A stretch of DNA of 64,000 nt from assembly GCA_963720755.1 (NCBI GenBank), contig CAVRGP010000002.1, positions 256,001-320,000 on the forward strand, in the 5' to 3' direction. The notes beneath the pieces were generated by a model. The model was given only the letters and a program-made list of their open reading frames with translations. It did not search any database and was not told the origin of the DNA. The stretch's first letter is position 1, and each line of letters opens with the position of its first letter. The DNA comes from an uncultured Chloroflexia bacterium. Its GTDB lineage: Bacteria; Chloroflexota; Limnocylindria; Limnocylindrales; CSP1-4. Shown piece by piece: positions 2,749 to 29,570 of the stretch. Made by a program: the position numbers and the translations under genes.

Positions 2749-4177
2749 ATGTCGAAGTCCGATGATGCGGTCGATCAAGGCCGACTACCTGATCCAGGGG
2801 GGCGGCGCCGTTGGGATGGCCTTCGCCGACTCGTTGTTCACCGACACCGACGCGACGATGGTGATCGTCGATCGGCACGACCGACCGGGCGGCCACTGGA
2901 ACGACGCATACCCGTTCGTGCGGCTGCACCAGCCCGCCAGCTACTACGGCGTGAACTCGCGGCCGCTCGGCACAGGCTCGATCGACAGATCGGGCTCAAC
3001 GCCGGGTTCCACGAATTGGCGTCGGGGCACGAGGTCGTGGCCCATTTCGACGCCGTGATGCGGCAGCGGTTCCTGCCGTCGGGCCGGGTCACGTTCCTGC
3101 CATCGAGCGAGGTCGGCGACGACCGGGTCGTGACGTCGCTGCTATCCGGGCGATCGGCGCCGGGTGGACGGCGGCCGCTTCGTCGACGCGACGCACTCCA
3201 GGATGCAGGTGCCGTCGACGACGCCACCGCCGTACGCCGTGCGCCGACGACGTGACCTGCGTTCCGGTCGGACGGCTGCCCGCGGTCGCTGCCGCGGTTC
3301 GATGACTTCATGGTGGTCGGTGCGGGCAAGACCGGCATGGACGCGTGCATCTGGCTGCTCGAGCAACGGCGCCGACCCGAGCAGATCCGCTGGATCGTGC
3401 CTCGCGACTCGTGGGTGCTGCGCCGGGGCAACTTCCAGCCGGGCGCCGAGCACTTCGCCCGCTTCTGCCAAGAGCATCGCGGACCAGGTGAGGCCGTCGC
3501 GAGTGCGATCGGGATCGACGACCTGTTCCTGCGGCTGGAGGCGGCCGACGAGCTCGCGCCGCGTCGACCCCGACAGTGACGCCCGAGGCGTACCACTGCG
3601 CCATCCTCAGCGACGGCGAGCTCGCCGAGCTGCGCCGCATCGACCGATGTCGTCCGACTCGGACGGGTGCGCGTCGATCGATCGCCGGCGAGATCGAGCT
3701 CGAGCAGGGCACCATCGACGGGCCCGACCGACGCTGCACGTCGACTGCTCGGCGGCGGGCATCCCGACGCACGGCCATCGACCGATGTTCGACGGCGACC
3801 GCATCACGCTCCAGTGGGTGCGCACGTGCCAACCCACGTTCAGCGCCGCGTTCATCGGTTTCGTCGAGGCGACGTTCGACGACGGACGAGAAGAACCGCA
3901 TCTGCCGCCCGATCGTGCCGCCGACGGTGCCGCTCGACTGGCTGCGGGTGATCGCAGTCGAGCTCGACAACCGACGGGCTGGACCGACTATCCCGCAGCT
4001 CGACGACTGGATGGCCGGTACGCGGCTCGACCCCTTCACCAAGACGGCGCGCGAGCGCATCGGGCGTCGACGACGAGGCCACCGACAGTTCCAGCGGTAC
4101 CTCGCCAACGCCGGGGCCGGCGAGGGCCAGGCTCGACCAGCTCCTGCAGCGGAGCTGGAAAGCGCGAGGTCGAAGCG
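2749..4177 (+). CDS. FAD/NAD(P)-binding oxidoreductase (multiple frameshifts, end approximate)
   Basis: DYLIQGGGAVGMAFAD, GGHWNDAYPFVRLHQP and VVGAGKTGMDACIWLL spread over several frames. Confidence 0.8.
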
Positions 4178-5136
4178 ATGGACGAGCTGCTGGTCGACAA
4201 CGGCGACATCACGCTGCGGGTCGAGGTGACCGGCGACGGGCCGACGGTGCTGTGCGTGCCCGGCTGGCCGGAGCTGGCCTCGTCGTGGCGCCACCAGGTC
4301 GCGCACTTCTCGGAGCGTGGCTACCGGGTCGCGGCGCTCGACGTGCGCGGCTACGGCGGCAGCTCGCGCCGCCCGAGGTCGAGCGCTACACGCTGCGCGA
4401 GCTGGCCGGCGACGTGGCTGCGGTGGCGGCCGCGCTCGACGACGAGCCGGTCGTGCTGTTCGGCCACGACTGGGGCGCGCCGATCGCGTGGCACGCCGCG
4501 ATCCGCCACCCCGACCGGGTGCGGGCCGTGGCCGGGCTGAGCGTTCCCCACACGCCGCCGCTGCCGCTCTCGCTGCTCGACGTGTTCGACCAGCTCTACG
4601 CCGACCGGTTCTTCTACATGCTCCGCTTCCGGAGCCCGGCGTGATCGAGGCGGAGTTCGACGCCGACCTGCGCGACGCGCTCGAAGCGTGTCTACTTCGC
4701 GCTCTCGGGCGCCGCCCCGCCGACAGCCTGCTGCCGGACGGCCCCGCGGACGCTGCGTTCCTCCCCCTGCTGCCCGAACCGCCGGACGGGACCGCTGGCG
4801 TTCATGTCCGACGACGAGCTCGACGCCTACGCGCGACGTTCGAGCGCACCGGGATGGTCGGCGCGTTCAACCGCTACCGGGCGCTGCGCGCTCGACGGCG
4901 ACGCCGACGCCGACATCGTCGGCGCCACGCGTCGACCAGCCCTCGTGCTTCATCGCCGGCGAGCATCGACCCCGTCCGGGCCATGCTCCCCGGCGTCGAC
5001 TCGTACGCCGACCCCGGCGCCGGCTGCACCGACTTCCGCGGCGCGACCATCGTCGCACGGGGCCGGCCACTGGGTGCAGCAGGAGGCCCCCGCCGCCGTC
5101 AACGCGGCGCTCGACGCCTTCCTCACCGGACTCTGA
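4178..5136 (+). CDS. Alpha/beta hydrolase, epoxide hydrolase-like (frameshifted)
   Basis: PGWPELASSWRHQ, DVRGYGGS, nucleophile elbow GHDWGA, GAGHWVQQE. Confidence 0.85.
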
Positions 5137-5157
5137 GCCACCGCGGAGGCCGCGTGC

Positions 5158-5285
5158 GAGCGCATCGATGTCCAGGGGTGACCGACGACACCTTCACCCT
5201 GACCGCCCCAAGCGTCGTCCGCGGGAACGAAGGTCAGTCTGGTCGGGGCGAGAGGACTTGGGCCCACGGAACCTACCTCATCAGG
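5158..5285 (+). pseudogene. Eroded C-terminal remnant of a putative site-specific recombinase, reading through a tRNA-Pro att-like site
   Basis: ERIDVQG/VTDDTFTLTA...GRGERTWAH resembles ARTDVLGFERMEYELTP...GRGER of the 9123-9410 remnant; recombinase identity is inference. Confidence 0.4.
5240..5255 (-). repeat. tRNA-Pro 3'-end copy 1 (att-like)
   Basis: Minus strand CCTCTCGCCCCGACCA = T-stem 3' strand, acceptor strand, A73, CCA; identical to 9334-9349. Confidence 0.75.
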
Positions 5286-5301
5286 CGCTGCCAGGGATGC
5301 G

Positions 5302-5646
5302 TCAGCCTCGGCCGAGTACCACGTCGAGGCCGGCGAGGACGAGCTCGAGGTTGGATGCCGAGAGGCGGCCGGCGCGCTCGGTGAGCGCCGTCCGGTCGAT
5401 GCGTGACGAGCTGGGACACGTTGGCAACCGACGGCTTCGGGAGGCCAGTCGCCCGTGCGGGTAGGAGCACGTTGCCGGGCGCCTCGCCCCACTTGAGGTT
5501 GCTCGTCAGCACGACGCAGACGACGGTCCGCAGGGAGCTCGCGTTGAAGGCGTCGCCCTGGACGACGACCACGGGCCGCGAAAGCCCGGCTCGGAGCCGG
5601 CAGGCTCGCCGAGGTCGGCCCACCAAACCTCGCCCTGGGCGATCAC
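5302..5646 (-). CDS. mazF: PemK/MazF-family type II toxin (frameshifted)
   Basis: VIAQGEVWWADLGEPAGSEPGF, RPVVVVQGDAFNAS, PGNVLL, SVANVSQLVT; GTG overlaps the antitoxin stop. Confidence 0.85.
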
Positions 5647-5882
5647 CACTCGTCGGACTCGAGGGTCCGGCGGGCGGCGCGGGCCGAGAAGTCGGCGCTC
5701 TCGCCGTCGCCCGCTTCGGCCACGACGGCATCAAGCCGCGCCGTCACCTCATCGGGGGCATGCCGGGCGACGTACTCGCGCAGGGCGGCGCTGTACACCT
5801 CGCTCCTCGAGCGGCGCGAGCGGCGGGCGAGGCGGTCCACCTGGGCGAACAGGTCGTCGGGGACCGAGACGGCGGTCTTCAT
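5643..5882 (-). CDS. Ribbon-helix-helix antitoxin (ChpI/MazE-like)
   Basis: MKTAVSVPDDLF...SRSEVYSAALREYV, C-terminal W; directly upstream of the toxin. Confidence 0.85.
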   Translation of the reverse strand: MKTAVSVPDDLFAQVDRLARRSRRSRSEVYSAALREYVARHAPDEVTARLDAVVAEAGDGESADFSARAARRTLESDEW

Positions 5883-5894
5883 ACCCGGAGTATA
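5881..5894 (-). promoter_or_regulatory. Leaderless -10 with overlapping autorepression operator of the TA operon
   Basis: TATACT 6 nt before ATG; palindrome ATAC-N5-GTAT overlaps the start. Confidence 0.55.
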
Positions 5895-5952
5895 ACGCCG
5901 TGCTCGGCCGGCCGAGCACGGCGAAGCGCCACCTCGCGGACCTGCCCGCAGG

Positions 5953-6672
5953 TCAGGCAGCCGCAGCGACCCGTGATGCCGGTGTCGGCCGATGCTGCGC
6001 TTCGCCCGTCTGGAACCCCTTGGCGAGGAGCCAGCCCGCGAACACCATCTCCTGGAACGCGATCGGCATCGCCAGGAGCATGTATGGCGAGCCCATGCCA
6101 GTGTCGAAGCCCAGGATGCCGAGCAGCCCGTACGTGAACACGCCGATGCCGCCGATCAGGCCCCAAACGGACAGCCAGTGGGGCACGAGCCGCGATCGGA
6201 AGAGCACGACATTGAGGGTCAGGCAGCCCAGACCGAAGAAGATCAGTGTCCCGATGACGACCGACCACGTGTGCCACGCCGCCAGCATCGCCCCGAGCGC
6301 GACCAGGTCCGCCGGCGCTGCCGCACCGATCGCGTCGTCCTGGCTCAGCGTCAGCATGACCAGGATGCTGATCGCGCCGGCCACGTAGAACACGTTCTCG
6401 AACGCCCGCAGGCCGACGTAGCCAGCCGCAAGGCCCTCGCCATGGGGCCGCAGGATCGGGAACAGCAGGAACGAGGTCGCAAAGGCGCAGGTCGCCGCGA
6501 CCAGGAAGCACAGCACGGCCGCCGTCACGCGACCGGCCTCAGCGGACAGGCCGGCCAGGTAGTCCGGTCCATCGAGGGCCGAACCGAGGACGACCGAACC
6601 CAGGATCGAACCCGCGGTCGCGACGATGAACAGGACGCCGACGACGGCCGCCGTCCGTCTCTCCGACTGCAT
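5953..6672 (-). CDS. DUF4386 family membrane protein
   Basis: RRTAAVVGVLFIVAT, LFRSRLVPHWLSVWG, PIAFQEMVFAGWLLAKGF; RBS GGAGG. Confidence 0.85.
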   Translation of the reverse strand: MQSERRTAAVVGVLFIVATAGSILGSVVLGSALDGPDYLAGLSAEAGRVTAAVLCFLVAATCAFATSFLLFPILRPHGEGLAAGYVGLRAFENVFYVAGAISILVMLTLSQDDAIGAAAPADLVALGAMLAAWHTWSVVIGTLIFFGLGCLTLNVVLFRSRLVPHWLSVWGLIGGIGVFTYGLLGILGFDTGMGSPYMLLAMPIAFQEMVFAGWLLAKGFQTGEAQHRPTPASRVAAAA

Positions 6673-7097
6673 TCGAGACCTCCATCGTTGAGGTTGCCAC
6701 GGCAGCCGCCGCGAGGCGGCGCCCGCAAGTCTCGGAATAGCGCACGACACGGACCTGACGCGAGAGCCACAGCGACCGAATCGCCGGGCCCCTGGGCAGG
6801 TTCGTTCGGGGGATCCGAGGGTCGAGGGATCCGGCGCCGATCAGCCCGAGCCTGCCGGCCAGCGAGACGGCAGCCGCAAGCACCCCCGGCCGCGACCGCC
6901 ATGGCCGCAGCGACGATCGGGTGCTCCAACGCGCCGACCTTCTCCGTGGTGACGAGCCCGGCCTGCTCCAGCCCCTCCTTGACTCAGCGATCTCTCAGCT
7001 TCGTGGGCCGGGCAGGCGGGTGGCTCCTCGTCCCGAGTCTGGAGCCCGTGGGAACGCCTGCTGGCCGACCCAGTGGGTTCGATGAGAGGCTCGGGCC

Positions 7098-8021
7098 TTA
7101 CGCCACGGCGACGACCACGTTGCCCCGCTTGTGCCCGTTGTCGACGTACCGGTGCGCCTCGACGATGTCGTCCAGGGCATAGGTGCGGTCGATGACGGGC
7201 CTGATCTCACCCTTCGTGGCCAACTCCCCGAGCAGCACCAGGTCCTCGCGACGAAGCTTCGGCCTCCCGTCGTCGACCGAGACGCAGGCTCCGCCGGGAG
7301 TCAGCACCTGCCGGCATCGTCGGAGCGCGGCGGCGCTCTTCCGCTTGCCCACGGCATCGAAGATCAGGTCGTATCGCGTTGCCCCATCCGTGAAGTCCTC
7401 GCAGGTGTAGTCGATCACCGCGGTCGCGCCGAGCGACGCCACGAGGTCCACGTTCGCACGTGCTGCACACGCCCGTCACCTCCGCACCGAGGTGCCGAGC
7501 AAGTTGCACGGCGGATGTGCCCACCGCCCCCGAGGCCCCGAAGACGAGGACCCGTTGTCCCGCCCGGACGCCCGCCTTGCGCAGGAAGGCAGAGCGCGAG
7601 GAGGCCACCGTACGGAATGGCCGCGGCCTCCTCATCGGTGAGGTTCGCCGGTCGCGTCGCCAAGAGTCCGTCTTCGGGCCAGCACACGTACTGCGCATAC
7701 GTTCCGAAGCGGCGCTGATCGAAGCCGAATACCCGCTGGCCCACTTCGAACGACGTGGCGTCTGGTCCGACGGAGTCCACCTCCCCTGAGAGCAGCATGC
7801 CGAGCACGGGTTGTCTGGGTGCGTTCCAGCCGAGGGCGAGTCGCGCCATGATCCGGTAGGCGGGGCTCAGGTCGAGCCCCCGGACGTAACAGTCGCTGGA
7901 CGTCACCGCGGTTGCCAGGATGCGGATGCGCACCTCGTGCTCGCGGGGAACCGGGGTCGCGAGTTCCTCGAGCCGCAGAACGGTCTGGCGGTCCATACCG
8001 CGTGCAGACGACGGCCTTCAT
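7098..8021 (-). CDS. NAD(P)-dependent alcohol dehydrogenase / MDR quinone-oxidoreductase-like (frameshifted)
   Basis: [49 protein letters not shown]. Confidence 0.85.
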
Positions 8022-8773
8022 GCCCGAGCGCCCTCGGCCTGCGGATCCGCGGGCCGCTTCCCAGCCGGCAGGTCCTGCCTCGGAGTCGACGACCTTCACG
8101 CCCTTGACCAGGAGCCACAGTCCCAGCCCGACTTCCGCGACGAAGCTCACGGCGAGCCCGGGGTAGCGGATCGCGGGGTAGTCCGGCAGCAGCAGGGCCT
8201 GGAGGAACCAGATCAGGACGGCGATCCCGTCGAGCACCAGGAGGACGCCCAGGAACCGGGGAAGGAAGCCGGACTTGTAGACCAGGTAGCCGAGCGGGAA
8301 CAGCCACGTGCCGAAGAACAGCTGGGCCGTGACCCAGCCCGTCTTGTAGACGTTGATGGACAGGTACGCCAGCCCCTCGAGCTGCGCCGCCGAGTAGGCC
8401 TGCATGTGGCTGGCCGCGTCTCCCTGGAGCATGCGCGGATACCAGCGACAACATGCTCGCGCCCTGGATGGCGACACCGACGGCGTTGAGCAGCAGGAAG
8501 AGCAACGCCAGGTCCTGATTGACCGGTCGCAGCAGGACGTAGAGACCCCACGCGGCCATGAGGAACAGGAACCCCGTGATCAACGCGACGACCAGGCCCA
8601 GGCGGAACGACCCCTCATTCGTGACGATCGCCTGGTAGACCTGCTGCGCGTCGCCCAGCCCGATACTGCCCCAGCACGGTGGCAAGCACGGAAGCCAGGA
8701 TGTAGGCGAGGTAGAAGCCGCCCGTGATCCTGGCCACCTTGCTCGGTGCCAGGTGATCTCCGCCCGTATTCAT
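8018..8773 (-). CDS. DUF4386 family membrane protein, second copy (frameshifted)
   Basis: ARITGGFYLAYI, LYVLLRPVN, FFGTWLFPLGYLVYKSGFLPRFLG, EVGLGLWLLVKGV. Confidence 0.8.
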
Positions 8774-9021
8774 TCCTTGTCTCCTTCGTTCGAGACGCCC
8801 CAACCCTCATCGCCAACCGCGACCGGACGGGTAGTGAGGCTCACCACCTCGTGACCTCGCAACGCCTCGAGGAATGGTTGAAAGCTGCCGCACACCAGGC
8901 AGCGCACGATCGGACCGTCGACCTCCACCTCGCTAACTCCGGACGCCCGCTCTAGCTGCCGAGCCGGAGGAACGCCGACGAAGCTGACTTCCACTCGTTG
9001 AGTCGGTAGCGCCCTGGTCAT
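8770..9021 (-). CDS. Small protein resembling the C-terminal accessory domain of ABC-2 ATPases
   Basis: 83 aa, GVSEVEVDGPIVRCLVCGSFQPFLEAL; TAGGCT -10 lies 7 nt before ATG; stop overlaps the next ATG. Confidence 0.55.
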   Translation of the reverse strand: MTRALPTQRVEVSFVGVPPARQLERASGVSEVEVDGPIVRCLVCGSFQPFLEALRGHEVVSLTTRPVAVGDEGWGVSNEGDKE

Positions 9022-9122
9022 GCTCGCCAGCCTATGGAGGCGCACGGGAGCCAGCATCGATGGGATTCGTGATTGGGTAGCGAGTCGACCGTCCGCTAGT
9101 GGCTCGACGACGCCATCCAGGC

Positions 9123-9410
9123 GACGTGCTCGTCGTCGGCTACTTGCGCTCCCTGCCATCGCCTTGGGCGGGTCAGGGCCCGATGCGCGCCAGGCGCTGG
9201 CGACATCGCTGTCCGCGCGCACGGACGTGCTGGGATTCGAGCGGATGGAGTACGAGCTCACGCCCGATGCGATCGAACTGGGCCTCGACGCCGCGCTCCT
9301 GGCCGTGTTGGAGATCGGGCAAGTGCGTGAGTTTGGTCGGGGCGAGAGGGCATGCGCCAACACTATCCAACGGTCGGTGAGGATCGCCGGCGACGGAGTC
9401 CAGGCCGACG
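9123..9410 (+). pseudogene. C-terminal remnant of a putative (large serine?) recombinase, reading through a tRNA-Pro att-like site
   Basis: VVGYLRSLPS(P)WA/GPDARQALATSLSARTDVLGFERMEYELTPDAIELGLDAAL...GRGER; no N-terminal domain; family assignment is inference. Confidence 0.5.
9334..9349 (-). repeat. tRNA-Pro 3'-end copy 2 (att-like)
   Basis: TGGTCGGGGCGAGAGG identical to 5240-5255; similarity extends 7 bp left (GTCAGTC vs GTGAGTT). Confidence 0.75.
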
Positions 9411-9549
9411 TTGATGCCTCGTCGGAGATCGCGCTGGCATCCCTCCGTCATGTCGGGAGACCACATCACCGCGCCCCCGTCAGCTCGGACCGCTGGCCGC
9501 TCGCGGCCGGATCGCAGGGCCAGGGCTAACGCCCGCGCCTTGATCTAGC

Positions 9550-10586
9550 TGTGGTTCACGAATAGGTTGTTGACAAGCGAGAGCCTCCCGAGGCTCGGTG
9601 TGGGTATCCAGCTCACAACCGACGGGAGACTCTCGTGGCACATCGTAGGGCGAAGCTGACGCTGCTCGGACGGCGTCTGCTGGTCGATCGGATCCTCATC
9701 GACGGGATGGCGGTGGCGCACGCCGCCGACATGGTCGGGGTCAGTCGTCAGACGGCCTGGAAATGGCTTCGCCGGTTCGAGGCGGAGGGACTCGCGGGTC
9801 TGGAGGACCGGTCCTCACGGCCGCACAGGTGTCCGCGGGCCCTGCCCCGGGCCACGGTCGATGCGATCGTGGCGGCTCGGCACGAGCACCGCTATGGACC
9901 CCATCGCCTCGCTCCCATCGTGGGCGTCCCGCGTTCGACCATCGGGGATGTCCTGATGCGTCTCGGGTTGTCCCGGCTGCGTGACCAGGATGGTCCGAGC
10001 GGCGTCCCGATCCGCTACGTCCGCGAGCGGCCCGGCGAGCTGCTCCACATGGACGTCAAGAAGCTGGGCCGGATCCCCGACGGTGGTGGACACCGGTTCC
10101 GTGGCCGGCAGACCGGCACACCGCGTTCCCGCGGAGCCGGATACGACTACCTGCACGTCGCGATCGACGACATGAGCCGCGTCGCATACGTCGGGGTCTT
10201 CGGTGACGAACGGGGCACGACGTGTGCCCGGTTCCTGCTCGACACGGCGGCGTTCTTCGCCGCGCGCGGGGTCCGGATCGAGCGGGTCCTGACCGACAAC
10301 GCCAAGAACTACACCCGGTCCCGGGCCTTCGCCGCGGCGATGTCGGAGATCGGGGCCCGGCACAAGCACACCCGGCCGTTCCGGCCCCAGACCAACGGCA
10401 AGGCCGAGCGCTTCAACGGCACCCTGGTCCGCGAGTGGGCCTACGTGCGACGCTACGACACCAATCGGGCCAGACTCGATACCCTGTCCGACTTCCTGAC
10501 CAACTACAACGAGCGACGCCCCCACGGATCGCTGAACGGACAGTCACCCATGACCGTCCTCGTCAACAACGTGTCCGGGAATCACA
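9550..10586 (+). mobile_element. IS481-family insertion sequence
   Basis: 25-bp terminal IRs TGTGGTTCACGAATAGGTTGTTGAC / TGTGATTCCCGGACACGTTGTTGAC (20/25); flanks TCTAGC and CCTAGC match the NCTAGN target. Confidence 0.93.
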
Positions 10587-10591
10587 CCTAG
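9635..10591 (+). CDS. IS481-family DDE transposase
   Basis: HTH N-terminus, LHMDVKKLGRI, VLTDNA, PQTNGKAERFN, YNERRPH. Confidence 0.95.
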   Translation: MAHRRAKLTLLGRRLLVDRILIDGMAVAHAADMVGVSRQTAWKWLRRFEAEGLAGLEDRSSRPHRCPRALPRATVDAIVAARHEHRYGPHRLAPIVGVPRSTIGDVLMRLGLSRLRDQDGPSGVPIRYVRERPGELLHMDVKKLGRIPDGGGHRFRGRQTGTPRSRGAGYDYLHVAIDDMSRVAYVGVFGDERGTTCARFLLDTAAFFAARGVRIERVLTDNAKNYTRSRAFAAAMSEIGARHKHTRPFRPQTNGKAERFNGTLVREWAYVRRYDTNRARLDTLSDFLTNYNERRPHGSLNGQSPMTVLVNNVSGNHT

Positions 10592-10989
10592 CGACCCCGT
10601 ATCGCCCGAACGAGCACCAGCCCGTACCCCGCGGCGATCCCAAGGAAGATCGCGAGGAAGCCCCAAGCGTTGAGCGAGGTCGCTGACTGGGAGTCCGTGA
10701 TGATCATCACCGCGATGAACAGGACCGTGAAGAGCGCCCAAGCCCCGCCGGCCATAGCGATGAGCGCCGCAACGACCCGCCCGAGCAGGCCACCGGTAAG
10801 AAGACCGACGGCGGCGACGACGCCCAGTCCCGCGAGGACGAACGGAAGGACCTCGATCGGGTTGCCGGAGATGTCCTCCATATGCCGTCGGCCCAGCGCC
10901 AGCCAGTACAGCCCGATGGCAGCGAGCGCGGTCAGCCACAGGGGCGGCCAACGTCGGCGGCGCTCGTTCGACCCATCCACCAGATACAC
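10588..10989 (-). CDS. Hypothetical integral membrane protein (about 4 TM)
   Basis: Four hydrophobic segments in 133 aa; stop codon is the CTAG of the IS target. Confidence 0.6.
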   Translation of the reverse strand: MYLVDGSNERRRRWPPLWLTALAAIGLYWLALGRRHMEDISGNPIEVLPFVLAGLGVVAAVGLLTGGLLGRVVAALIAMAGGAWALFTVLFIAVMIITDSQSATSLNAWGFLAIFLGIAAGYGLVLVRAIRGR

Positions 10990-11174
10990 CCCAGGCGAGG
11001 TCCCCGACTCTGTTCGGGCTACATCAACCTACCTTCGGCTGCTACGGGGGAGACGCACGAACGCATCGGTCCGTCACGGGCGCGGCTGGCGCGGACCGCT
11101 GATCACATGTAGCGGGTCGAGGACCGGGGCCACAGCCGAGAGCGAAGACTCAGTAGCCGAACCCCGGGCCAGCC

Positions 11175-11286
11175 GTCGTGAGGCCCGAGCGCGCCCGGAG
11201 CCACAAGCTCGGCGGCGTCGCTAACGGATCCCCCAGCGGCAACGAACGCCGCGAGCGCCTCGATCTGACGCTGCGTCGCCTTCGGC
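11175..11286 (-). pseudogene. Fragment of a small HTH protein with an internal deletion
   Basis: [28 protein letters not shown], then after a frame break LRARSGLTT. Confidence 0.45.
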
Positions 11287-11382
11287 GATCGAGCCGGACG
11301 TCGCGAAGCGCGTAGACCAACGCGCGATGCCGATTAGCAATACATCGTTGTTGTGCATCTGCTCAACCATTGTATTGCTGCC

Positions 11383-11796
11383 CACGTTGATGCGGTCCGT
11401 CTCGGACAGGGTCTCGTCGAGGGTGTGCTGGCCGACCACCTTGCGCAGGGTGGTCTGGGCGATCTGGTTGATGGCTGCGTTGACGTTCTCGATGGCCACC
11501 ACCGATTTCACTGCGTCGATCACCCGGAAATAGGCCACCGCGGACACATCGACGCTGACGTTGTCCCGCGTGATGATGCCCTGTGACTGGATCGGCATCG
11601 TCACGATGCGCAGCGAGACCCGGTGCAGCACATCGACGAACGGGATGATGAACCGCAAGCCCGGCTTGCGGACGCCGATGACTCGACCGAATCGGAACAG
11701 CACCCCGAGTTCGTACTGCTTGACGACACGGACGGCAAGTGCGGCAATGATCGCCACCACCGCAGCCACTCCGAGAACGATGATCCAGGTGTTCAT
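11383..11796 (-). pseudogene. SPFH/band 7 (slipin) protein truncated mid-domain
   Basis: [58 protein letters not shown], then unrelated sequence. Confidence 0.85.
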
Positions 11797-11943
11797 GATG
11801 ATGCTCCTCGGAAACGACGGTGAGTGAGCATCGCCGGCGCCTCCCGGTGACCGAGGAGCGGAGCGATCCGGGCGTCGACCCGAGCTCAACAGGCATGGTG
11901 TGCCCTCGCTCTCCACAGTCGCCGAGCAGCTGGATCCTTCACA

Positions 11944-11957
11944 GGGGCAAAGGTCCT
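11944..11957. promoter_or_regulatory. DosR/DevR-box-like site upstream of the SPFH gene
   Basis: GGGGCAAAGGTCCT vs core GGGNCNWWNGNCCC. Confidence 0.35.
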
Positions 11958-11991
11958 GACAGCTCGGCCACCCCGGCCGGCCACCGGGTGG

Positions 11992-12756
11992 TCACCCCTG
12001 CGGCGCGTTCCGGCCCCGGCCGGCCCGGCGGCCGGCCGGTGGCAGCGCGTGCAGTCGCAGCAGGGCGGCCTCGAGGTGCTCGACCGACAGCGCCGGAACG
12101 GACAGCGGTGTCGGCGTCGGCCTGGACACCCGGAGCCCGTCGATGACGACGCCGAGCATCCGGCGCCAGAGCTCAGGCTGATCGGGGCCGGCGAAATCGG
12201 CGGCGGTTTGCACCGACATGGTCAACAGGGGCAGATCGGTCGCCTCGATGTCCGGACGCAGCACCCCCGCCAACTGCGCCCGTCGGACGAGATCAGCTGT
12301 CAATGAATGGATCTCACTCCGAATCTGGGCAACCTGAGCGGTCAGCCGGTGCTGCCTGTCGTTGGTCGCGCAGGACGGCGTTGGTGTCCCGCGCAGCACC
12401 AGATCACGCAGTCCGTGATCGCCGACCATCATTGCGGTGGTCTCCTCCAGGAAGTACACCAGCGCGCGCCACGGGTCGTCGATGGCGGCGGCCGCGGTGG
12501 CCACGCTCACCACCTCGGCGAGGCGGGAACGGAAGAGTTCTTCGATCAGTTCGTCCTTGGTCGCGAACCGGCGGTACACGGTGCCGACACCGACACCGGC
12601 CTGCCGCGCGACGTCGGCCAGTTTCGCGTCCAGGCCCTTCTCGGCGAAAACGACCTTGGCGGCGGCGAGCACCCGGTCCAGGTTCGCCCGGGCATCGCTG
12701 CGCAGGCGCTCCGTGTCCCGCTGCGCACCGGCGGGCTCGGACGTCGTTGTCGGCAT
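11992..12756 (-). CDS. TetR/AcrR family regulator
   Basis: LRSDARANLDRVLAAA...ADVARQAGVGVGTVYRRFATKDEL; probable leaderless start (TATCCT-N6-ATG). Confidence 0.92.
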   Translation of the reverse strand: MPTTTSEPAGAQRDTERLRSDARANLDRVLAAAKVVFAEKGLDAKLADVARQAGVGVGTVYRRFATKDELIEELFRSRLAEVVSVATAAAAIDDPWRALVYFLEETTAMMVGDHGLRDLVLRGTPTPSCATNDRQHRLTAQVAQIRSEIHSLTADLVRRAQLAGVLRPDIEATDLPLLTMSVQTAADFAGPDQPELWRRMLGVVIDGLRVSRPTPTPLSVPALSVEHLEAALLRLHALPPAGRRAGRGRNAPQG

Positions 12757-14470: not shown

Positions 14471-16801
14471 ACTGAACGCGTCGACGACCATACCCAGCAC
14501 GATCACCGCGCCGGCCTTGTCCAGGGGTTGGTTTCCGTTGCCGCACTTGGGGGATTGCACGCAGGACGGACAGCCGGATTCGCACGGGCAGTCGGCGACC
14601 GCGCGGCGGACGGCGTCGAGCCAGTCGCGCAACACCGCGTGGCCGCGGTCGGCGAATCCGGCGCCGCCCGGGTAGCCGTCATAGACGATGACGGTCGGTT
14701 CCCCGGTGTCGGCGTGGGCGGCCGTCGACAGTCCGCCGATGTCCCACCGATCGCAGCCGGCGAACAGCGGCAACAGCCCGATCGCGGCGTGCTCGGCGGC
14801 GTGCAGCGCACCGGGCACCCTGGCCTCGGCGACACCGGCGGCGATCAGCGTGTCGAGCGCGATCGTGTACCAGACCGCTCTGGTGTGCAGGGTGTGCCGG
14901 GGCATGTCGAGCCCGATCACGTCGAGCAGTTCACCGTCCGGTCGGCGCCGGAGGTAGCCGACCACCTGCTCGGTGACCTCGACCGGACCGACCCCCACCC
15001 GCACCCCGCCCGGGTACCGGTCCTCGCGATGCACCGAGGACATCGACACCGTGGAATGGGAGCGGGCGATGGTCGACCACTCGGGGCGCTCCGGCCGGAC
15101 CAGCGCGACCCCGGTGTGCAGGTCCAGGTCCTGCACCACGTAGCTCTCGCCGCGGTGCAGGTGCACCGCACCGGAGTGCACCGCCGACGGGGCGCGGTGC
15201 AGGTCGACGGTGCCGAGCAATCGGGCGGTGTCCTGGTCGACGATGGCCACCTGGCCGCCACCGCCGCCGCGCAGATTCACCGCATCGGCCGGGTGACCCG
15301 GTTCGGCCCAGAACCAGCCCGTCGGCCGACGCCGAAGCACCTGACGGTCGACCAGATCGTCCAGCAGTGGTTCGATCGCCGGGCCACCGAACTGGCCGAG
15401 GTCGCCGGGCGTCAGGTGTCGTTCGGCGGCGGCGCAGGCCAGGTGCGGTCCCAGGATGTACGGGTTGGTGGGGTCGGTGACGGCCAGCTCCACCGGGCGG
15501 CCGAACACCGTCTCCGGGTGGTGCACCAGGTAGGTGTCCAACGGATCGTCGCGAGCGATGAACACCACGAGGGCGCGTTCCCCGGAATCGGCCCGCCGGC
15601 CGGCCCGGCCCGCCTGCTGCCAGACCGAGGCCAGCGTCCCCGGGTAGCCGGCCAGGATCGCGACGTCCAGCCCGGCGATGTCGATCCCCAGTTCCAGTGC
15701 ATTGGTCGACGCGAGTCCGAGCAGCTCCCCGGAATCCAGCGCACGTTCCAGCTCCCGTCGTTCTTCCGGCAGATAGCCGCCGCGGTAGGCCGCCACCCGG
15801 CCGACCAGGCCGGGTGCCAGCTCGGCCAGTCGGCGTTGCGCCGACAGGGCGGTCTGCTCCGCGCCGTGCCGGGACCGGACGAAGGTCAGCGTCCGAGCCC
15901 CGGCCGCGACCAGTTCGGCCATCATCCGGGCAGCCTCGGCGGGTGCCGAGCGGCGGGCCTGGCTCCCGTCGGAACCGGCCGGGCCGGTGCCCGGTTCCCA
16001 GAGCACGAAGTCGGCGCCCGCCCGCGGAGCCCCGTCGTCGGTGATGGCCTGCACGGGCCGGCCGATCAACCGGCCGGCCGAGGTCTGCGGGTCGGCGGTG
16101 GTCGCCGAGGCCAGGATGAACACCGGCTCCGATCCGTACATCCGCGCAAGCCGGGTCAACCGGCGCAGCACCAGTGCCACGTGCGAACCGAAAACACCGC
16201 GGTAGGAATGACACTCGTCGACCACCACATAGGCCAGCCGGCGTAGCACCCTGGCCCAGCGGGCGTGCCCGGGCAGCAGCCCGCGGTGCAGCATGTCCGG
16301 ATTGGTCAGCAGCCAGTTCGCGTGCGCCCTGGCCCAGTCCCGGTCGGGCATCGAGGAGTCCCCGTCATAGACCGCCGGCCGGAGGCCGGGCAGTCCGAGC
16401 GACTCCAGGGACTCCAGCTGATCGGCGGCCAGCGCCTTGGTGGGGGACAGGTACAGCACGCAGGACTTCGGGTTGTCCAGCACGGCCGCGAGGCCGGGAA
16501 GCTGATAGGCCAGGGACTTCCCGGACGCCGTCCCGGTCGCCAGCACCACATCGTGACCGGCGTGGGCAAGCTCGGCGGCCTGAGCCTGATGGGTCCAGGG
16601 GCGATTGACGCCCCGGGCCGCGAACACCTCCCGGGCGGCCTGCGGCACCCACTCCGGCCAGGGGGCGGACCGGCCGGGACGCCACGGCATCTGCTCCACA
16701 TGGGTGATCGACGGTGTGACTGACATCACTGTGGGGGCGCTGCACCGATTCAGCACTTCGAGCAGCCCGCGAGGATCTGCCCAGGCATCCGGTGACGTCA
16801 C
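14444..16801 (-). CDS. DEAD/DEAH-box helicase with DUF1998 (SftH/MrfA/Hrq1-like)
   Basis: TGTASGKS, DECH, SAT, QQAGRAGR, C-terminal CPCESGCPSC; start approximate. Confidence 0.92.
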   Translation of the reverse strand: MTSPDAWADPRGLLEVLNRCSAPTVMSVTPSITHVEQMPWRPGRSAPWPEWVPQAAREVFAARGVNRPWTHQAQAAELAHAGHDVVLATGTASGKSLAYQLPGLAAVLDNPKSCVLYLSPTKALAADQLESLESLGLPGLRPAVYDGDSSMPDRDWARAHANWLLTNPDMLHRGLLPGHARWARVLRRLAYVVVDECHSYRGVFGSHVALVLRRLTRLARMYGSEPVFILASATTADPQTSAGRLIGRPVQAITDDGAPRAGADFVLWEPGTGPAGSDGSQARRSAPAEAARMMAELVAAGARTLTFVRSRHGAEQTALSAQRRLAELAPGLVGRVAAYRGGYLPEERRELERALDSGELLGLASTNALELGIDIAGLDVAILAGYPGTLASVWQQAGRAGRRADSGERALVVFIARDDPLDTYLVHHPETVFGRPVELAVTDPTNPYILGPHLACAAAERHLTPGDLGQFGGPAIEPLLDDLVDRQVLRRRPTGWFWAEPGHPADAVNLRGGGGGQVAIVDQDTARLLGTVDLHRAPSAVHSGAVHLHRGESYVVQDLDLHTGVALVRPERPEWSTIARSHSTVSMSSVHREDRYPGGVRVGVGPVEVTEQVVGYLRRRPDGELLDVIGLDMPRHTLHTRAVWYTIALDTLIAAGVAEARVPGALHAAEHAAIGLLPLFAGCDRWDIGGLSTAAHADTGEPTVIVYDGYPGGAGFADRGHAVLRDWLDAVRRAVADCPCESGCPSCVQSPKCGNGNQPLDKAGAVIVLGMVVDAFSAGALTRAG

Positions 16802-17008
16802 TGTTCCATTGTCCCGCCGCCCACCGACAAAGGATCGCAAGCGCCTTCCGCGGGCCGGTACGGGCGCGGTCGGTAGGAGGCGGCTGATCGGTGCTTTACA
16901 GTACGGATCGTCACGTCGGGTCACCGGCGGGCGACGCGTTCGACCAGCGCCGGTCCGCAGCGAGTTGACCGGTCCGAGTAAATGCCCCTCGCATGGATCA
17001 GGAGCTCG

Positions 17009-19303
17009 ATGTCAGTCCAGAGTGCCGCCGAAATTGTCGTTACCGGCAGTGATCAAGCAATCGTCATCGGAGTGGCCGTCATCGCGTTGATCGCGCTGGT
17101 CATTGCGTTCGTGCTGCGGGCCGGGGTACTGGCCGCCGGCCAGGGCACCCCCAAGATGCAGGAGATCTCGGGCGCCGTCCAAGAGGGTGCGGCCGCCTAC
17201 CTGACGCGCCAGTTCCGCACCCTCGGCATCTTCGTCGTGATCGTCTTCGTGCTGCTGTTCGCGTTGCCCGCGACGAACACCGGCGAGCGGATCGGCCGGT
17301 CGATCTTCTTCCTGGTCGGTGCGCTGTTCTCCGCCACCATCGGTTACCTGGGTATGTGGCTCGCCACCCGGGCCAATGTCCGGGTGGCCGCAGCCGCCAA
17401 CGGCGACGGCGGCCGGGAGAAGGCGATGCAGATCGCCTTCCGCACCGGCGGCGCCGTCGGCCTGGCCACCACCGGCCTCGGCCTGCTCGGTGCCTCCGTC
17501 GTCGTCCTGGTCTACGTGGCCGAGGCGCCGAAGGTGTTGGAGGGCTTCGGTTTCGGCGCCGCGTTGCTCGCCATGTTCATGCGGGTCGGCGGTGGCATCT
17601 TCACCAAGGCCGCTGACGTCGGCGCTGACCTGGTCGGCAAGGTGGAGAAGGGCATTCCGGAGGACGACCCCCGCAACGCCGCCACCATCGCCGACAACGT
17701 CGGTGACAACGTCGGTGACTGCGCCGGCATGGCGGCCGACCTGTTCGAGTCCTACGCGGTCACCCTGGTTGCCTCGCTCATCCTGGGGAGCTCCGCGTTC
17801 GGGGTGAAGGGCCTGATCTTCCCGCTGATCGTCCCGGCGATCGGGGTGCTCACCGCCATCGTCGGCGTCTACATCACCAAGGCCAAGGTCGGCGAGCCCG
17901 GCCTGGTCACCATCAACCGGTCCTTCTACATCTCCGCCGCCATCTCCGCCGTGCTCTGCGGGGTCGCCGCCTTCAGCTACCTGCCCACGACCTTCGCGGC
18001 CCTGAATGTCGAAGCGGTTGCCGGACAGTCGGGCAACCCCGCGCTGATCGCCACCATCGCCGTGATCATCGGCATCGTCCTCGCCGGCGTCATCCTGTGG
18101 CTGACCGGCTACTTCACCGGCACCGAGACCAAGCCCACCAAGGACGTCGCCAAGTCCTCGCTGACCGGCGCCGCCACCGTCATCCTCGCCGGCATCTCCG
18201 TCGGCTTCGAGTCGGCCGTGTACACCGCGCTCGTCATCGCCGCCGCCGTCTACGGCGCGTTCCTGCTCTCCGGATCGATCCTGGTCGGGCTGTTCGCCAT
18301 CGCGCTGGCCGGTTGCGGCCTGCTGACCACCGTCGGCGTCATCGTCGCGATGGACACGTTCGGGCCCGTCTCGGACAACGCCCAGGGCGTCGCCGAGATG
18401 AGCGGCGAGGTGTCCGCCGAAGGTGCGCGGATCCTCACCGAGCTCGACGCGGTGGGCAACACCACCAAGGCCATCACCAAGGGCATCGCGATCGCAACCG
18501 CCGTGCTGGCCGCCACCGCACTGTTCGGGTCGTACTCCGACGCCATCACCCAGGCGCTGATCTCCGCCGGCGACACCGCCACCCTGGCGGCCAGCGGGAT
18601 GAACTCCTTCATCACCACGGTGGTCTCGCCCGGAACCCTGGTCGGCATGCTGCTCGGGTCGGCCGTGGTGTTCCTGTTCTCCGGGCTGGCGGTCAACGCG
18701 GTCGCCCGGGCGGCGGGCGCCGTCGTGATGGAGGTCCGCCGGCAGTTCCGGGAGATCCCCGGCATCATGGAGGGCATCAACAAGCCGGAATACGGCAAGG
18801 TCGTCGACATCGTGACCCGCGACTCATTGCGCGAACTGGCCACGCCGGGGCTGCTGGCGGTCTTCGCGCCGATCGCCGTGGGCTTCGGTCTCGGCGTCGG
18901 CCCACTGGCGGGTTACCTGGCCGGCACCATCGCGACCGGCACCCTGATGGCAGTCTTCCTGGCCAACTCCGGCGGGGCCTGGGACAACGCGAAGAAGATC
19001 GTCGAGGACGGCACGCACGGCGGCAAGGGTTCACCGGCGCACGAGGCCACCATCATCGGTGACACCGTCGGTGACCCGTTCAAGGACACCGCCGGCCCCG
19101 CGATCAACCCGCTGCTCAAGGTGATGAACCTGGTGGCGCTGCTGATCGCGCCGGCCATCGTCGGACTGTCGGTGGGTTCCTCGGAGAGCGGACCCATCCG
19201 ATACGGCATCTCCGCGATCTCGGTGCTGATCATCGTTGGCGCGGTGATCGTCTCCAAGCGGCGGGAATCCTCCCTGCACGCCGAGGAACCGCAGCACGCC
19301 TAG
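17009..19303 (+). CDS. hppA: Membrane-bound pyrophosphatase, K+-independent H+-pumping type
   Basis: DVGADLVGKVE, DNVGDNVGD, GNTTKA (Lys at the K+-determining site), GDTVGDPFKDT; RBS AGGAG. Confidence 0.95.
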   Translation: MSVQSAAEIVVTGSDQAIVIGVAVIALIALVIAFVLRAGVLAAGQGTPKMQEISGAVQEGAAAYLTRQFRTLGIFVVIVFVLLFALPATNTGERIGRSIFFLVGALFSATIGYLGMWLATRANVRVAAAANGDGGREKAMQIAFRTGGAVGLATTGLGLLGASVVVLVYVAEAPKVLEGFGFGAALLAMFMRVGGGIFTKAADVGADLVGKVEKGIPEDDPRNAATIADNVGDNVGDCAGMAADLFESYAVTLVASLILGSSAFGVKGLIFPLIVPAIGVLTAIVGVYITKAKVGEPGLVTINRSFYISAAISAVLCGVAAFSYLPTTFAALNVEAVAGQSGNPALIATIAVIIGIVLAGVILWLTGYFTGTETKPTKDVAKSSLTGAATVILAGISVGFESAVYTALVIAAAVYGAFLLSGSILVGLFAIALAGCGLLTTVGVIVAMDTFGPVSDNAQGVAEMSGEVSAEGARILTELDAVGNTTKAITKGIAIATAVLAATALFGSYSDAITQALISAGDTATLAASGMNSFITTVVSPGTLVGMLLGSAVVFLFSGLAVNAVARAAGAVVMEVRRQFREIPGIMEGINKPEYGKVVDIVTRDSLRELATPGLLAVFAPIAVGFGLGVGPLAGYLAGTIATGTLMAVFLANSGGAWDNAKKIVEDGTHGGKGSPAHEATIIGDTVGDPFKDTAGPAINPLLKVMNLVALLIAPAIVGLSVGSSESGPIRYGISAISVLIIVGAVIVSKRRESSLHAEEPQHA

Positions 19304-28031: not shown

Positions 28032-29301
28032 TCAGCCCAGCAGGTCCGTCAGCGGCACCTCCGGGTCGGCCAGCGCGGCCAGGTCCACGGTGTGCGCCCG
28101 CCAGCCCCGCCTTGACCAGGGCGCCGATGGTCTCCGTCACGTCCCAGACGTTGGCGTTCATCCCCGCCAGCACCGCACCGTCCCGGACCCAGAACGCCAG
28201 GAATTCCGGCGCGGCCACATCCGGTGCCGGACCGACCGTCGGATCGCCGCGGAACACCACCTGGTCGTAGCCGCCCGGCGTCACCCAGCCGGTGTACTCC
28301 ATGCCCAGGTCGTACTGGTCGGAGAAGAAGTAGGGAACCGGTGCGTACGGCGTCGGTCGCGCCCAGCATCGACCGGGCCGCCGCCGGGCCGCCGTTCAGC
28401 GCGTTGGCCCAGTGCTCCACCCGGAGCCGCCGGCCCAGCTGCGGGTTGAACGAGGACGCGACATCGCCGCAGGCGTAGACATCCGGGTCGGACGTCCGCA
28501 GGAGCTCGTCGGTGACGACGCCGTTGTCGACCTCCAGGCCGGCCGCCACCGCCAGCTCGACGGCGGGCTCGATACCGATGCCGACCACCACGATGTCGGC
28601 GGCAACCTCCCAGCCGTCGTCCAGCAGGACACCACTGACCGCACCGTCGGTCCGGCCGAGGATCTGGGTGACACCGGCCCCGAACCGGAAATCGACACCG
28701 CGGGCGGCATGCAGATCCCGGTAGACGCCGGCGACCTCGTCGCCCAGCACCCGGCGCAGCGGCAGCGTGTCCTGCTCGACGACGGTGACCGCGCAGCCGT
28801 GCTGGCGGGCGGCGGCAGCGGTCTCCAGGCCGATCCAGCCGGCGCCGATCACCACCACGTGCTGGTGCTGCTGGAAGGCCGCGAGCAGTTCGTCCGACTG
28901 ATCCAGGGTCCGCAGGTACCGCACGCCGGCGAGTTCGGAGCCCGGAGCGGTGAGCCGGCGCACCCGGGAGCCGGTGGCGAGCAGCAGCTTGTCGTAGTGA
29001 ATGGTCTCGGTCGGGTGCAGCTCGACGGTCTTGGCGGCCGTGTCGAGCGCGACCGCGACGCTGCCGGCCCGCCACTCGATGTCGTTCTCCAGGTACCACT
29101 GCGGCTCGTGGACGATACGCCTTCTCGCGCGGCTTCGCTCCCCAGCAGGTAGCCCTTGGACAGCGGCGGTCGCTCGTAGGGCGGCTCGGTTTCCTCGCCG
29201 ATCAGCACAACCCGGCCGGTGAAGCCGTCCGCCCGGAGGGTCTCAGCGGCCTTTGCCCCGGCCAGCGAGGCTCCGACAATCACAAATGTCTCATCACTCA
29301 T
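28032..29301 (-). CDS. Ferredoxin-reductase-like FAD/NAD oxidoreductase (frameshifted)
   Basis: IVGASLAG, PYERPPLSKGYL, IGAGWIGLE, TSDPDVYACGD, RVEHWANA. Confidence 0.9.
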
Positions 29302-29570
29302 GCCGCCCAATGTCCTCCCCTTTTCGGTGGTCTCGCGACCACGGCCCGCAGGTGGCCGACCGTCCGGGCACCGCATCGGTGCCCGGGCGATGCTCGACCG
29401 GTGACCGCGGTCGATCTCCGTTCCGGGCACAAAGAGTCTGTATCAGTCGCTGCCGACAGAGGCCGATCCGGTCACGGCCGGAGCTTCCGCCGGGGGCTGT
29501 CGGCGTTCGGTGGGGACTGTCGTGGTGGTCGGTTACCGTGACCGGACCAAACCCATCAGGAGGTGCAGCG

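Follow-up and report, generated by a model that had tools for sequence, protein, structure and literature searches.

The PhiC31, Bxb1, SPbeta and A118 serine integrases are large serine recombinases (LSRs) that combine a resolvase-type catalytic domain, a recombinase domain, a zinc ribbon and a coiled coil. Serine-integrase att sites are simple, ~40-50 bp long, with dyad symmetry and a central dinucleotide. A family of LSRs with the same domains by fold, and with a candidate attP-sized imperfect dyad of ~52 bp around a putative non-palindromic central dinucleotide, has left its remains in a 64,000-nucleotide stretch of DNA from an uncultured Chloroflexia bacterium (here termed the window: positions 256001-320000 of contig C2, in an assembly of 15 contigs and 3.01 Mb). 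This family differs from the known serine integrases in that it targets the 3' part of a tRNA gene, keeping 16 bp of identity that would rebuild it, and in that its attP lies inside the integrase's own last codons. What the window itself very probably holds is an inner remnant of an array of small LSR islands in tandem, which would integrate at the T-loop/T-stem boundary of tRNA-Pro(CGG) by means of an attP placed within the last codons of the LSR gene.

Each of these traits has a counterpart in other systems. In the available portion of one study (PMC8092301), 10 of 15 tyrosine-integrase attB sites overlap tRNA genes, and serine integrases are treated apart; the main text of a large LSR survey (10.1101/2021.11.05.467528) does not contain the word tRNA, and its supplements might hold tRNA-adjacent sites. 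A site within the integrase's own gene is described, in the accessible part of PMC8371274, for the “suicidal” integrases of the SSV type, which are fragmented on integration and occur only in archaea. The present family is alike in having the recombination site inside the recombinase gene, so that integration alters the gene, but SSV-type enzymes belong to the tyrosine recombinases and are broken into inactive halves, whereas this bacterial family has a serine recombinase fold and swaps only the residues that follow a GRGER peptide, leaving the catalytic and DNA-binding parts intact. Mycobacteriophages BPs, Brujita and their relatives also carry attP in coding sequence, with C-termini that differ between the viral and prophage forms; according to the excerpted text of PMC3694055, integration removes a C-terminal degradation tag from the repressor, and the integrase is tagged too. 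The phages, however, have their attP in the repressor gene and use a tyrosine-type integrase, whereas in the present family attP runs through the gene of the integrase. Among engineered systems, the closest parallel to a direction set by the tail would be the directionality factor fused to a serine integrase which, going by the title of the report (PMC5737554), controls the direction of recombination. Tandem accretion of islands at tRNA genes likewise leaves same-sense copies of tRNA 3' ends between unrelated cargo blocks; the present elements depart from the usual case in being very small (an LSR plus one to few cargo genes in two relatives' loci, L023 and L032), in being serine-driven, and in forming arrays that also lie away from the tRNA. 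A literature search returned work on serine integrases generally, on archaeal SSV-type integrases and on phages with tyrosine integrases, but no account of tRNA targeting by LSRs, none of a bacterial recombinase gene that contains its att site, and none of recombinases from Limnocylindria. The family thus described appears, from its sequences, to be a new variant of serine-integrase element with two unusual traits, tRNA targeting and an attP in the last codons of the integrase.

The site is marked by a 16-mer (TGGTCGGGGCGAGAGG) found on the plus strand of the window at 5240-5255 and 9334-9349, exact at both, the copies agreeing at 21 of 23 positions when the seven bases of the left flank are included. 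No further copy exists in the window, even at two or fewer mismatches, a tolerance at which shuffled controls gave a mean of 0.19 matches, and at least two matches in 2 of 100 shuffles. The whole assembly contains four copies, the other two being C6:6636 and C6:17516, the latter at the end of a 77-nt tRNA-Pro(CGG) gene (C6:17516-17592, minus strand). The reverse complement of the 16-mer is the final 16 nt of this tRNA, comprising the 3' strand of the T-stem, the 3' strand of the acceptor stem, the discriminator and CCA; the tRNA-Pro genes with TGG and GGG anticodons in the same assembly have 3' ends unlike it. Within the window ARAGORN finds a tRNA-Thr and a tRNA-Lys only, tRNA-Pro being absent, and Rfam gave nothing at E<=1 for positions 4000-12000. 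A first-pass annotation of the window had reported both copies with their matching left flank, and had taken them for a tRNA-Pro 3' end in the absence of any tRNA-Pro gene there; both statements are upheld, and a source tRNA with the expected end is now located on C6, so that the objection of there being no such tRNA in the genome falls.

The 16-mer is also not a chance or dispersed repeat. It is present in 50 of 61 genomes of the genus, at 0-11 copies each and at least two copies in 25 of the 61, and the copies of multi-copy genomes are mostly clustered in the same sense on one contig, with a maximum of nine within 45 kb (G064). The reversed control pattern had no match across the 61 genomes. 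One genome presents a different geometry, with two 16-mers in opposite orientation only ~450 bp apart (G068:C4:89462-89925), perhaps an inversion-type layout of this site.

To the left of both cores, the DNA reads as the eroded 3' ends of LSR genes. A DNA search of 31 genomes found matches to window positions 5142-5206 and 5212-5282, 83-94% identical, in many members of the genus, and the segment 5142-5239 shows 83-94% nucleotide identity to the loci of six relatives. In one of these loci, L016, the segments form the 3' end of a near-complete LSR open reading frame (ORF), with one in-frame stop near its N-terminus, and the frame reads ..FERIDVLGATDYTFTLTAHAKARGWDAAFGAGVAAVKEGRS-GRGES.. straight across the core. 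The stump at copy 1 (5142..5239, plus strand) retains the last ~33 codons, in pieces: ERIDVQG is followed immediately by TGA, and VTDDTFTLTA..NEGQS-GRGER enters the core in a different frame, with a 12-codon gap relative to homologs. By BLASTP it is identical to a database homolog (P0010) at 19 of 40 positions, with a 12-aa gap (E 1e-06). The stump at copy 2 (9140..9333, plus strand; last ~65 codons, ..ARTDVLGFERMEYELTPDAIELGLDAALLAVLEIGQVREF into the core, supported by BLASTP and tblastn) is better preserved, with 80 stop-free codons leading into the core in the GRGER frame, 46 of 71 positions (65%) identical to residues 425-494 of the 495-residue P0120 (E 4e-24), and a spacing from DVLG to GRGER of 33 aa, equal to that in L016. 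These terminal codons are all that is left, there being no complete LSR reading frame in the window, and the 15-contig assembly yielded no intact member of this LSR family.

The first-pass annotation had suggested that each copy is entered in frame by a related eroded ORF, that these ORFs are C-termini of a recombinase, probably a large serine type, and that the att core itself encodes GRGER in the recombinase frame. The last point is borne out by the read-through in L016 and in database homologs. In-frame entry holds for copy 2 and the peptides are homologous, but at copy 1 the pieces lie in different frames with a stop between them. That the related ORFs are spurious was suggested by blastn and tblastx of four genomic flanks, which found nothing past the core and a few bases; this was overturned by the relatives and the database proteins. 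A reading of 5142-5239 as conserved chromosomal flank 3' of the tRNA, the order seen in G006, is ruled out by L016, in which the segment is the LSR 3' end.

A protein search with the L016 ORF (8000 scored candidates) yielded 655 homologs at E<=1e-10, labelled as recombinase family proteins of Chloroflexota or Candidatus Limnocylindrales metagenome-assembled genomes, with a few other labels. Separately, a scan of species-representative genomes found 148 relatives, of which 80 loci were retained, drawn by LSR homology alone. The core stands at the end of the LSR match in 63 of the 80 (scored at three or fewer mismatches, nearly all being exact), and ARAGORN places tRNA-Pro(cgg) directly after the core at 24 loci. 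When 78 cores are sorted by the identity of their next 40 nt (>=90%), 25 adjoin the tRNA, 46 have other flanks and seven run off the contig. At least two cores occur in 11 loci, and L086 has five plus the tRNA, while L023 (3.8 kb) and L032 (5.4 kb) are complete small elements bordered by the tRNA at one end and by a core at the opposite end. Besides the LSR, their cargo is a RibD_C gene with a weak LuxR-type match, or an ECF sigma factor, plus unassigned frames. The expectation that such elements sit at tRNA-Pro and stack in tandem is thus realised in relatives, both as LSR-core-tRNA loci and as multi-core arrays. A tRNA-Pro(cgg) called by ARAGORN at L016 2228-2304, inside the LSR gene, has no blastn similarity to the real tRNA and is a probable false positive in GC-rich DNA.

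The serine nature of the family is supported at several levels. Pfam matches Resolvase (PF00239) in the LSR gene on C6 (16080-16742), in L023 and in L032; it is the only domain above threshold in most members, PF07508 being recorded in distant members only. S25, in ..RESTAGQ.., is invariant across 31 and 41 aligned sequences and by its position would be the catalytic nucleophile, and C280, C283 and C300 are invariant in the aligned members. An AlphaFold2 model of the homolog P0002 (41-sequence alignment, mean pLDDT 79) retrieves from the PDB with Foldseek, at probability 1.00, first 9dxh (SPbeta-type), 9iu2 (Bxb1) and 9tep (PhiC31), all full-length serine integrases, and then the LSR-DNA complex 4kis, over alignments of 347-621 columns. 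Judged by this modelled fold, the family has the resolvase-type catalytic domain, recombinase domain, zinc ribbon and coiled coil of serine integrases, and the suspicion that the flanks of the cores derive from a large serine recombinase, with homologs that carry such domains and end at tRNA-Pro(CGG) in 24-25 loci, proved sound.

Across the loci the junctions are of a few kinds. On its left side the core adjoins either the 3' end of an LSR gene or a second type of conserved end (..GCTCGACGATGAGGTAGGTT); on its right side it adjoins the body of the tRNA, an arm resembling the tRNA (A[CG]TTGG.CCC.CGGAACCTACCTCATC, of which window 5256-5282 is an example), or an arm of several further classes. 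Core 1 (5240..5255, plus strand) is antisense to the last 16 nt of tRNA-Pro(CGG), encodes GRGER in the LSR frame, and sits within an attP-like 52-bp site (5229..5280) whose left arm is GAAGGTCAGTC plus the core, and whose tRNA-like right arm ends in AACCTACCTC; the right arm 5256-5282 is conserved in nine relatives' loci. In the commonest LSR clade, the left arm compared with the reverse-complemented right arm (GAAGGTCGGTGGTCGCGGGGC..) agrees at 16-17 of 30 positions, forming a candidate 52-bp dyad centred on the last GG of the 16-mer, with GAAGGTC/GACCTTC ends. As raw scores, L012, L031 and L039 reach 16-17/30, the window 13/30, and the other sites compared, including those of the tRNA type, 9-14/30. 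The crossover would fall at this last GG. A crossover there would explain why identity ends exactly at the 16-mer, since the element would have to supply everything from that point to the tRNA CCA; the need to rebuild the tRNA 3' end would likewise explain why every junction keeps the exact 16-mer, translated as GRGER. To the right of core 2 (9334..9349, plus strand, exact 16-mer) lies what reads as the far-end arm of a further element (9350..9433, plus strand), with the LSR-frame tail ACANTIQRSVRIAGDGVQADVDASSEIA; it shares 57-61 of 90 nt with the sequences that flank L086:4856 and L017:6261. Its tail follows the pattern of L086, L094 and L084, and the stop that relatives have after ..SEIA is missing here.

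The genome from which the window derives contains one example beside the tRNA. A 10.9-kb element bounded by the repeat (C6:6636-17516) adjoins tRNA-Pro(CGG), and encodes an RHS-repeat protein, a Replic_Relax protein and an LSR (16080-17527) that points at the tRNA. This LSR gene has two frame breaks, the zinc-ribbon motif and the C-terminal part following the Resolvase domain in other frames, and a further LSR stump (C6:6001-6423) lies to the left of C6:6636. Direct repeats of the tRNA end together with a recombinase beside the tRNA, as expected of a tRNA island, are found at C6:6636..17516, L023, L032 and L086; the window has the repeats and no tRNA. The RHS-repeat cargo, which accompanies the Replic_Relax gene, is a 1768-aa protein (C6 7671-12974, minus strand; DUF6531 and RHS repeats). 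A ~125-bp repeat at C6 3460-3733, present also at C6:239127-239246 and near relatives' core arrays (L011 5284, 12321, 15709; L012 6230), could mark a further conserved end of an element. The LSR family has a fourth copy in this genome, a fragment comprising the N-terminal ~300 aa over several frames, which lies far from any 16-mer at C8:100449-101424 (minus strand).

These features suggest how the islands would operate. The LSR gene is the last of the element and is aimed at the tRNA 3' end, with attP within its final codons: the left half-site would combine the ~11 nt that close the coding sequence with 14 nt of the 16-mer, and the right half-site would be the element's opposite end. The family presumably catalyses integration into tRNA-Pro(CGG), which would set the LSR gene against the tRNA, where a TGA antisense to the T-loop would end the protein at GRGERI. 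In an excised circle, or at the junction of stacked elements, the frame would continue into the arm of the partner, the median extension being 27 aa and the end usually Ala. At each of the two junctions in the window, an LSR end is joined to an element arm on its right; such joints belong between stacked elements or to an excised circle, and the window therefore holds an inner piece of an array that has lost both ends.

Differences in the C-terminus are visible in genomes and databases. Beside the tRNA the LSR frame ends GRGERI*, the stop being the TGA of ATTTGAA in the T-loop antisense. Classifying the C-termini of the best 120 of the 655 homologs, 37 end exactly GRGERI, 10 have GRGER and one residue, 50 have a tail of at least 2 aa after GRGER, and 23 have no GRGE[RS] near the end (GRGGR-like variants, truncated or frame-broken entries). 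The 50 tails are 15 to 108 aa long (median 27), their lengths cluster at 25-32 aa, and the last residue is Ala in 39. Reconstructed excised forms would carry, after GRGER, the tails DCPATNDLPITMRLAEPPEPFNWLRTA (L023), HSPATNDLPITMRLAEPPEPHELDRSA (L032) and SQADTSRVKVWIVSERCRPGVRRSA (the C6 element, from the same genome as the window). Of 64 non-redundant flanks other than the tRNA, 45 reach a stop within 40 codons and 19 do not, and the LSR frame gives Ala as the last residue in 28 of the 64, while the two remaining forward frames do so in 11 and 2. In one tail class, class C, conservation stops at the stop codon, and the length variants among database proteins are in frame, keeping the -RSA end down to 50-60% identity. 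Synonymous to nonsynonymous differences in tails number 16:18 when read in the LSR frame, and the five remaining frames give 7-15:20-29. The P0002 model has a strand at 480-484, a low-confidence GRGER loop at 485-497, and a tail strand at 500-506 (LPITMRL; pLDDT ~82). On these comparisons the tails look coding and would presumably be translated, and the earlier idea that the recombinase's tail changes with the junction agrees with the GRGERI* seen at the tRNA and the longer tails seen at other junctions.

Other explanations of the cores have been considered. Direct repeats of 16-17 bp at tRNA 3' ends are typical of classical islands of tyrosine integrases, whose attB sites often overlap tRNA genes in the study cited above, and the serine recombinase might be a passenger in such an island. 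This is very improbable: Pfam finds no tyrosine-type Phage_integrase domain in 107 window ORFs, 99 C6 ORFs or the elements L023 and L032, the core has a fixed place at the LSR end in 63 of 80 loci chosen by LSR homology alone, and the candidate 52-bp dyad centred on the core end is of serine-integrase size. It is equally hard to credit that the window copies are decayed duplicates of tRNA-Pro, that is, pseudogenes, for which the resemblance to the tRNA right of copy 1 (A.TT.G.. and ACCTCATC, with a 6-nt offset) might speak. The same arm with the same offset occurs in nine relatives' loci, joined leftward to LSR or other element ends, and so is a conserved site arm; moreover, copy 2 has no tRNA similarity past the 16-mer, and LSR C-termini lie left of both copies. 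The separation of the array on C2 from the tRNA on C6 might also be an assembly chimera, given a draft in 15 contigs (93.6% complete, 2.7% contamination) with some frame breaks. We consider this unlikely, as long contigs would not be mis-joined by a repeat of only 16 bp, the two copies are some 261 kb from the start of a contig of 470 kb, and cores on two or more contigs are seen elsewhere in the genus (G005, G040 and G068 among them).

Several observations count against the account of LSR islands with attP in their last codons. The core is missing from the gene end in 17 of the 80 LSR loci: in ten of them the match is cut or partial, and the other seven, which probably use another site, are the remotest relatives (42-44% identity). 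The window array does not adjoin a tRNA. Contigs of other public runs, all short pieces of relatives (best share <=0.19 of sampled words), contain no circular junction or empty site, and no joint linking two cores without extra letters, and are neutral as to recombination. The same contigs have one base fewer at 7457, 7985 and 8518 (also at 4931, 5096, 5314 and 5402); 7457 and 8518 coincide with frame changes of two cargo genes, an alcohol dehydrogenase (ADH)-like gene and the second of two DUF4386 genes, and some frame breaks may thus be assembly errors or strain-specific, a gene of the otherwise intact part of the window being split as well. As to the tails, one antisense frame is close in the codon test (15:20), so that the LSR frame is not cleanly separated; members L077-L094, a subfamily, read the core in a different frame (..VMVGARG..), so that GRGER is not shared by the whole family; and the DNA site, not the protein, may account for the conservation just left of the core. 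In addition, the tails fall into many unrelated classes, and some arms, including the tRNA-like class of copy 1 as it stands in relatives, give an immediate stop, with no swap there. These unrelated classes and immediate stops, the flanks that lack a stop within 40 codons and the subfamily's other frame would suit a plainer explanation, to which we give about an even chance: the tail swap is a neutral by-product of a compact element whose LSR overlaps attP, the sequence after GRGER being tolerated junk, and GRGER being dictated by the tRNA, not by the protein. It fits less well with the prevalence of Ala ends and the clustered lengths of database tails, the excess of Ala-last flanks in the LSR frame, the in-frame indels of class C with -RSA kept, the conservation that stops at the stop codon and the confident beta strand predicted in the tail. 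A more ambitious proposal, which we put forward only tentatively, is that an att site in the integrase's last codons acts as a sensor of the element's own state. The circle would make a long form (the GRGER loop plus a ~27-aa strand ending -SA, -IA or -TA) and the integrated element the short GRGERI form, and the two might differ in stability, the tail being a protease tag, or in directionality, the tail being a built-in equivalent of a directionality factor that favours integration or excision; this would be a one-gene switch, and stacked elements would pass their tails on. A role in degradation for the Ala-ending tails is a guess by analogy; ARAGORN found no tmRNA gene in the 15 contigs, which may be missing from the draft or of an undetectable form.

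Whatever the tails do, the LSR array in the window is dead and detached: its LSRs are stumps, no intact LSR of the family was found in the genome, no tRNA is nearby, and an IS481-family element has entered after copy 2. The first-pass annotation had viewed the locus as a cassette-like gene-capture array; with both recombinases reduced to stumps and no intact copy in the assembly nothing in the window can now serve as such an array, and this view does not hold for its present state. A search for the ancestral tRNA neighbour, comparing the relatives' flanks with this genome by blastn and tblastx, gave noise only. Rearrangement mediated by the insertion sequence was discarded as the cause of separation, since blastn detects no second copy of the IS481-family element in the assembly.

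The cargo between the cores is in part frame-broken. A frame-split alpha/beta hydrolase gene (Pfam, among the 107 window frames) ends at 5136, left of the array, and LSR stump 1 begins 6 nt past its stop. Between the cores, on the minus strand, lie a PemK/MazF-like toxin gene at the far end of the island (5276..5743; PF02452, E 2.8e-09), a stop-to-stop frame with a ribbon-helix-helix (CopG) antitoxin-like gene (5646..6155; PF01402, E 4.1e-08), a DUF4386 cargo gene (5956..6840; PF14329, E 4.7e-39), the Zn-dependent ADH-like gene (7101..8017; ADH_N and ADH_zinc_N_2 in separate frames, split near 7418-7475), and the second DUF4386 gene, split across two frames (7635..8769; Pfam). The block 7087-9126 is 90% identical to a block of G015 that stands in another context, the homology stopping just before LSR stump 2. 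Right of core 2, the IS481-family transposase gene (9566..10588, plus strand; LZ_Tnp_IS481, rve and rve_3) cuts the element starting at 9350, and is followed by Band_7, TetR and split MFS genes (Pfam). The division of the first 11.4 kb into cargo blocks, as proposed earlier, is shown for 5256-9333 only; the right block is interrupted by the IS481-family element. From ~14.4 kb onwards the genes are mostly intact and ordinary (helicase, H+-pyrophosphatase, topoisomerase I, DNA polymerase III delta').

Some further details of this region may be recorded. Part of the frame-split DUF4386 gene (8081-8758) has a 78%-identical paralog at C15:248794-249469, with closer copies (83-89%) in G005, G015 and G017. 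Between the first DUF4386 gene and the ADH gene, a 43-nt stretch (6929-6971) recurs at 93-95% identity in at least six relatives; many contigs of other public runs match only ~6934-6970, with loose ends on both sides and without an Rfam match, and the stretch looks like a short dispersed conserved element. A Pyr_redox_2 gene (28052-29442, minus strand) is split over two frames within the otherwise intact core region.

The result for the window itself is an ordinary one, a dead and detached fragment of an array, and the exact 16-mer offers an easy marker of island turnover in soil Chloroflexota genomes. The wider interest lies in the LSR family, bacterial and widespread, which breaks two patterns: tRNA sites have gone with tyrosine integrases, as in the available portion of PMC8092301, and a site within the integrase's own gene has been an archaeal trait, as in the accessible part of PMC8371274. 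Where serine integrases are used for genome engineering, control of directionality is their chief practical limit, and if the two protein forms of this family behave differently, they would represent a new and very compact means of such control.

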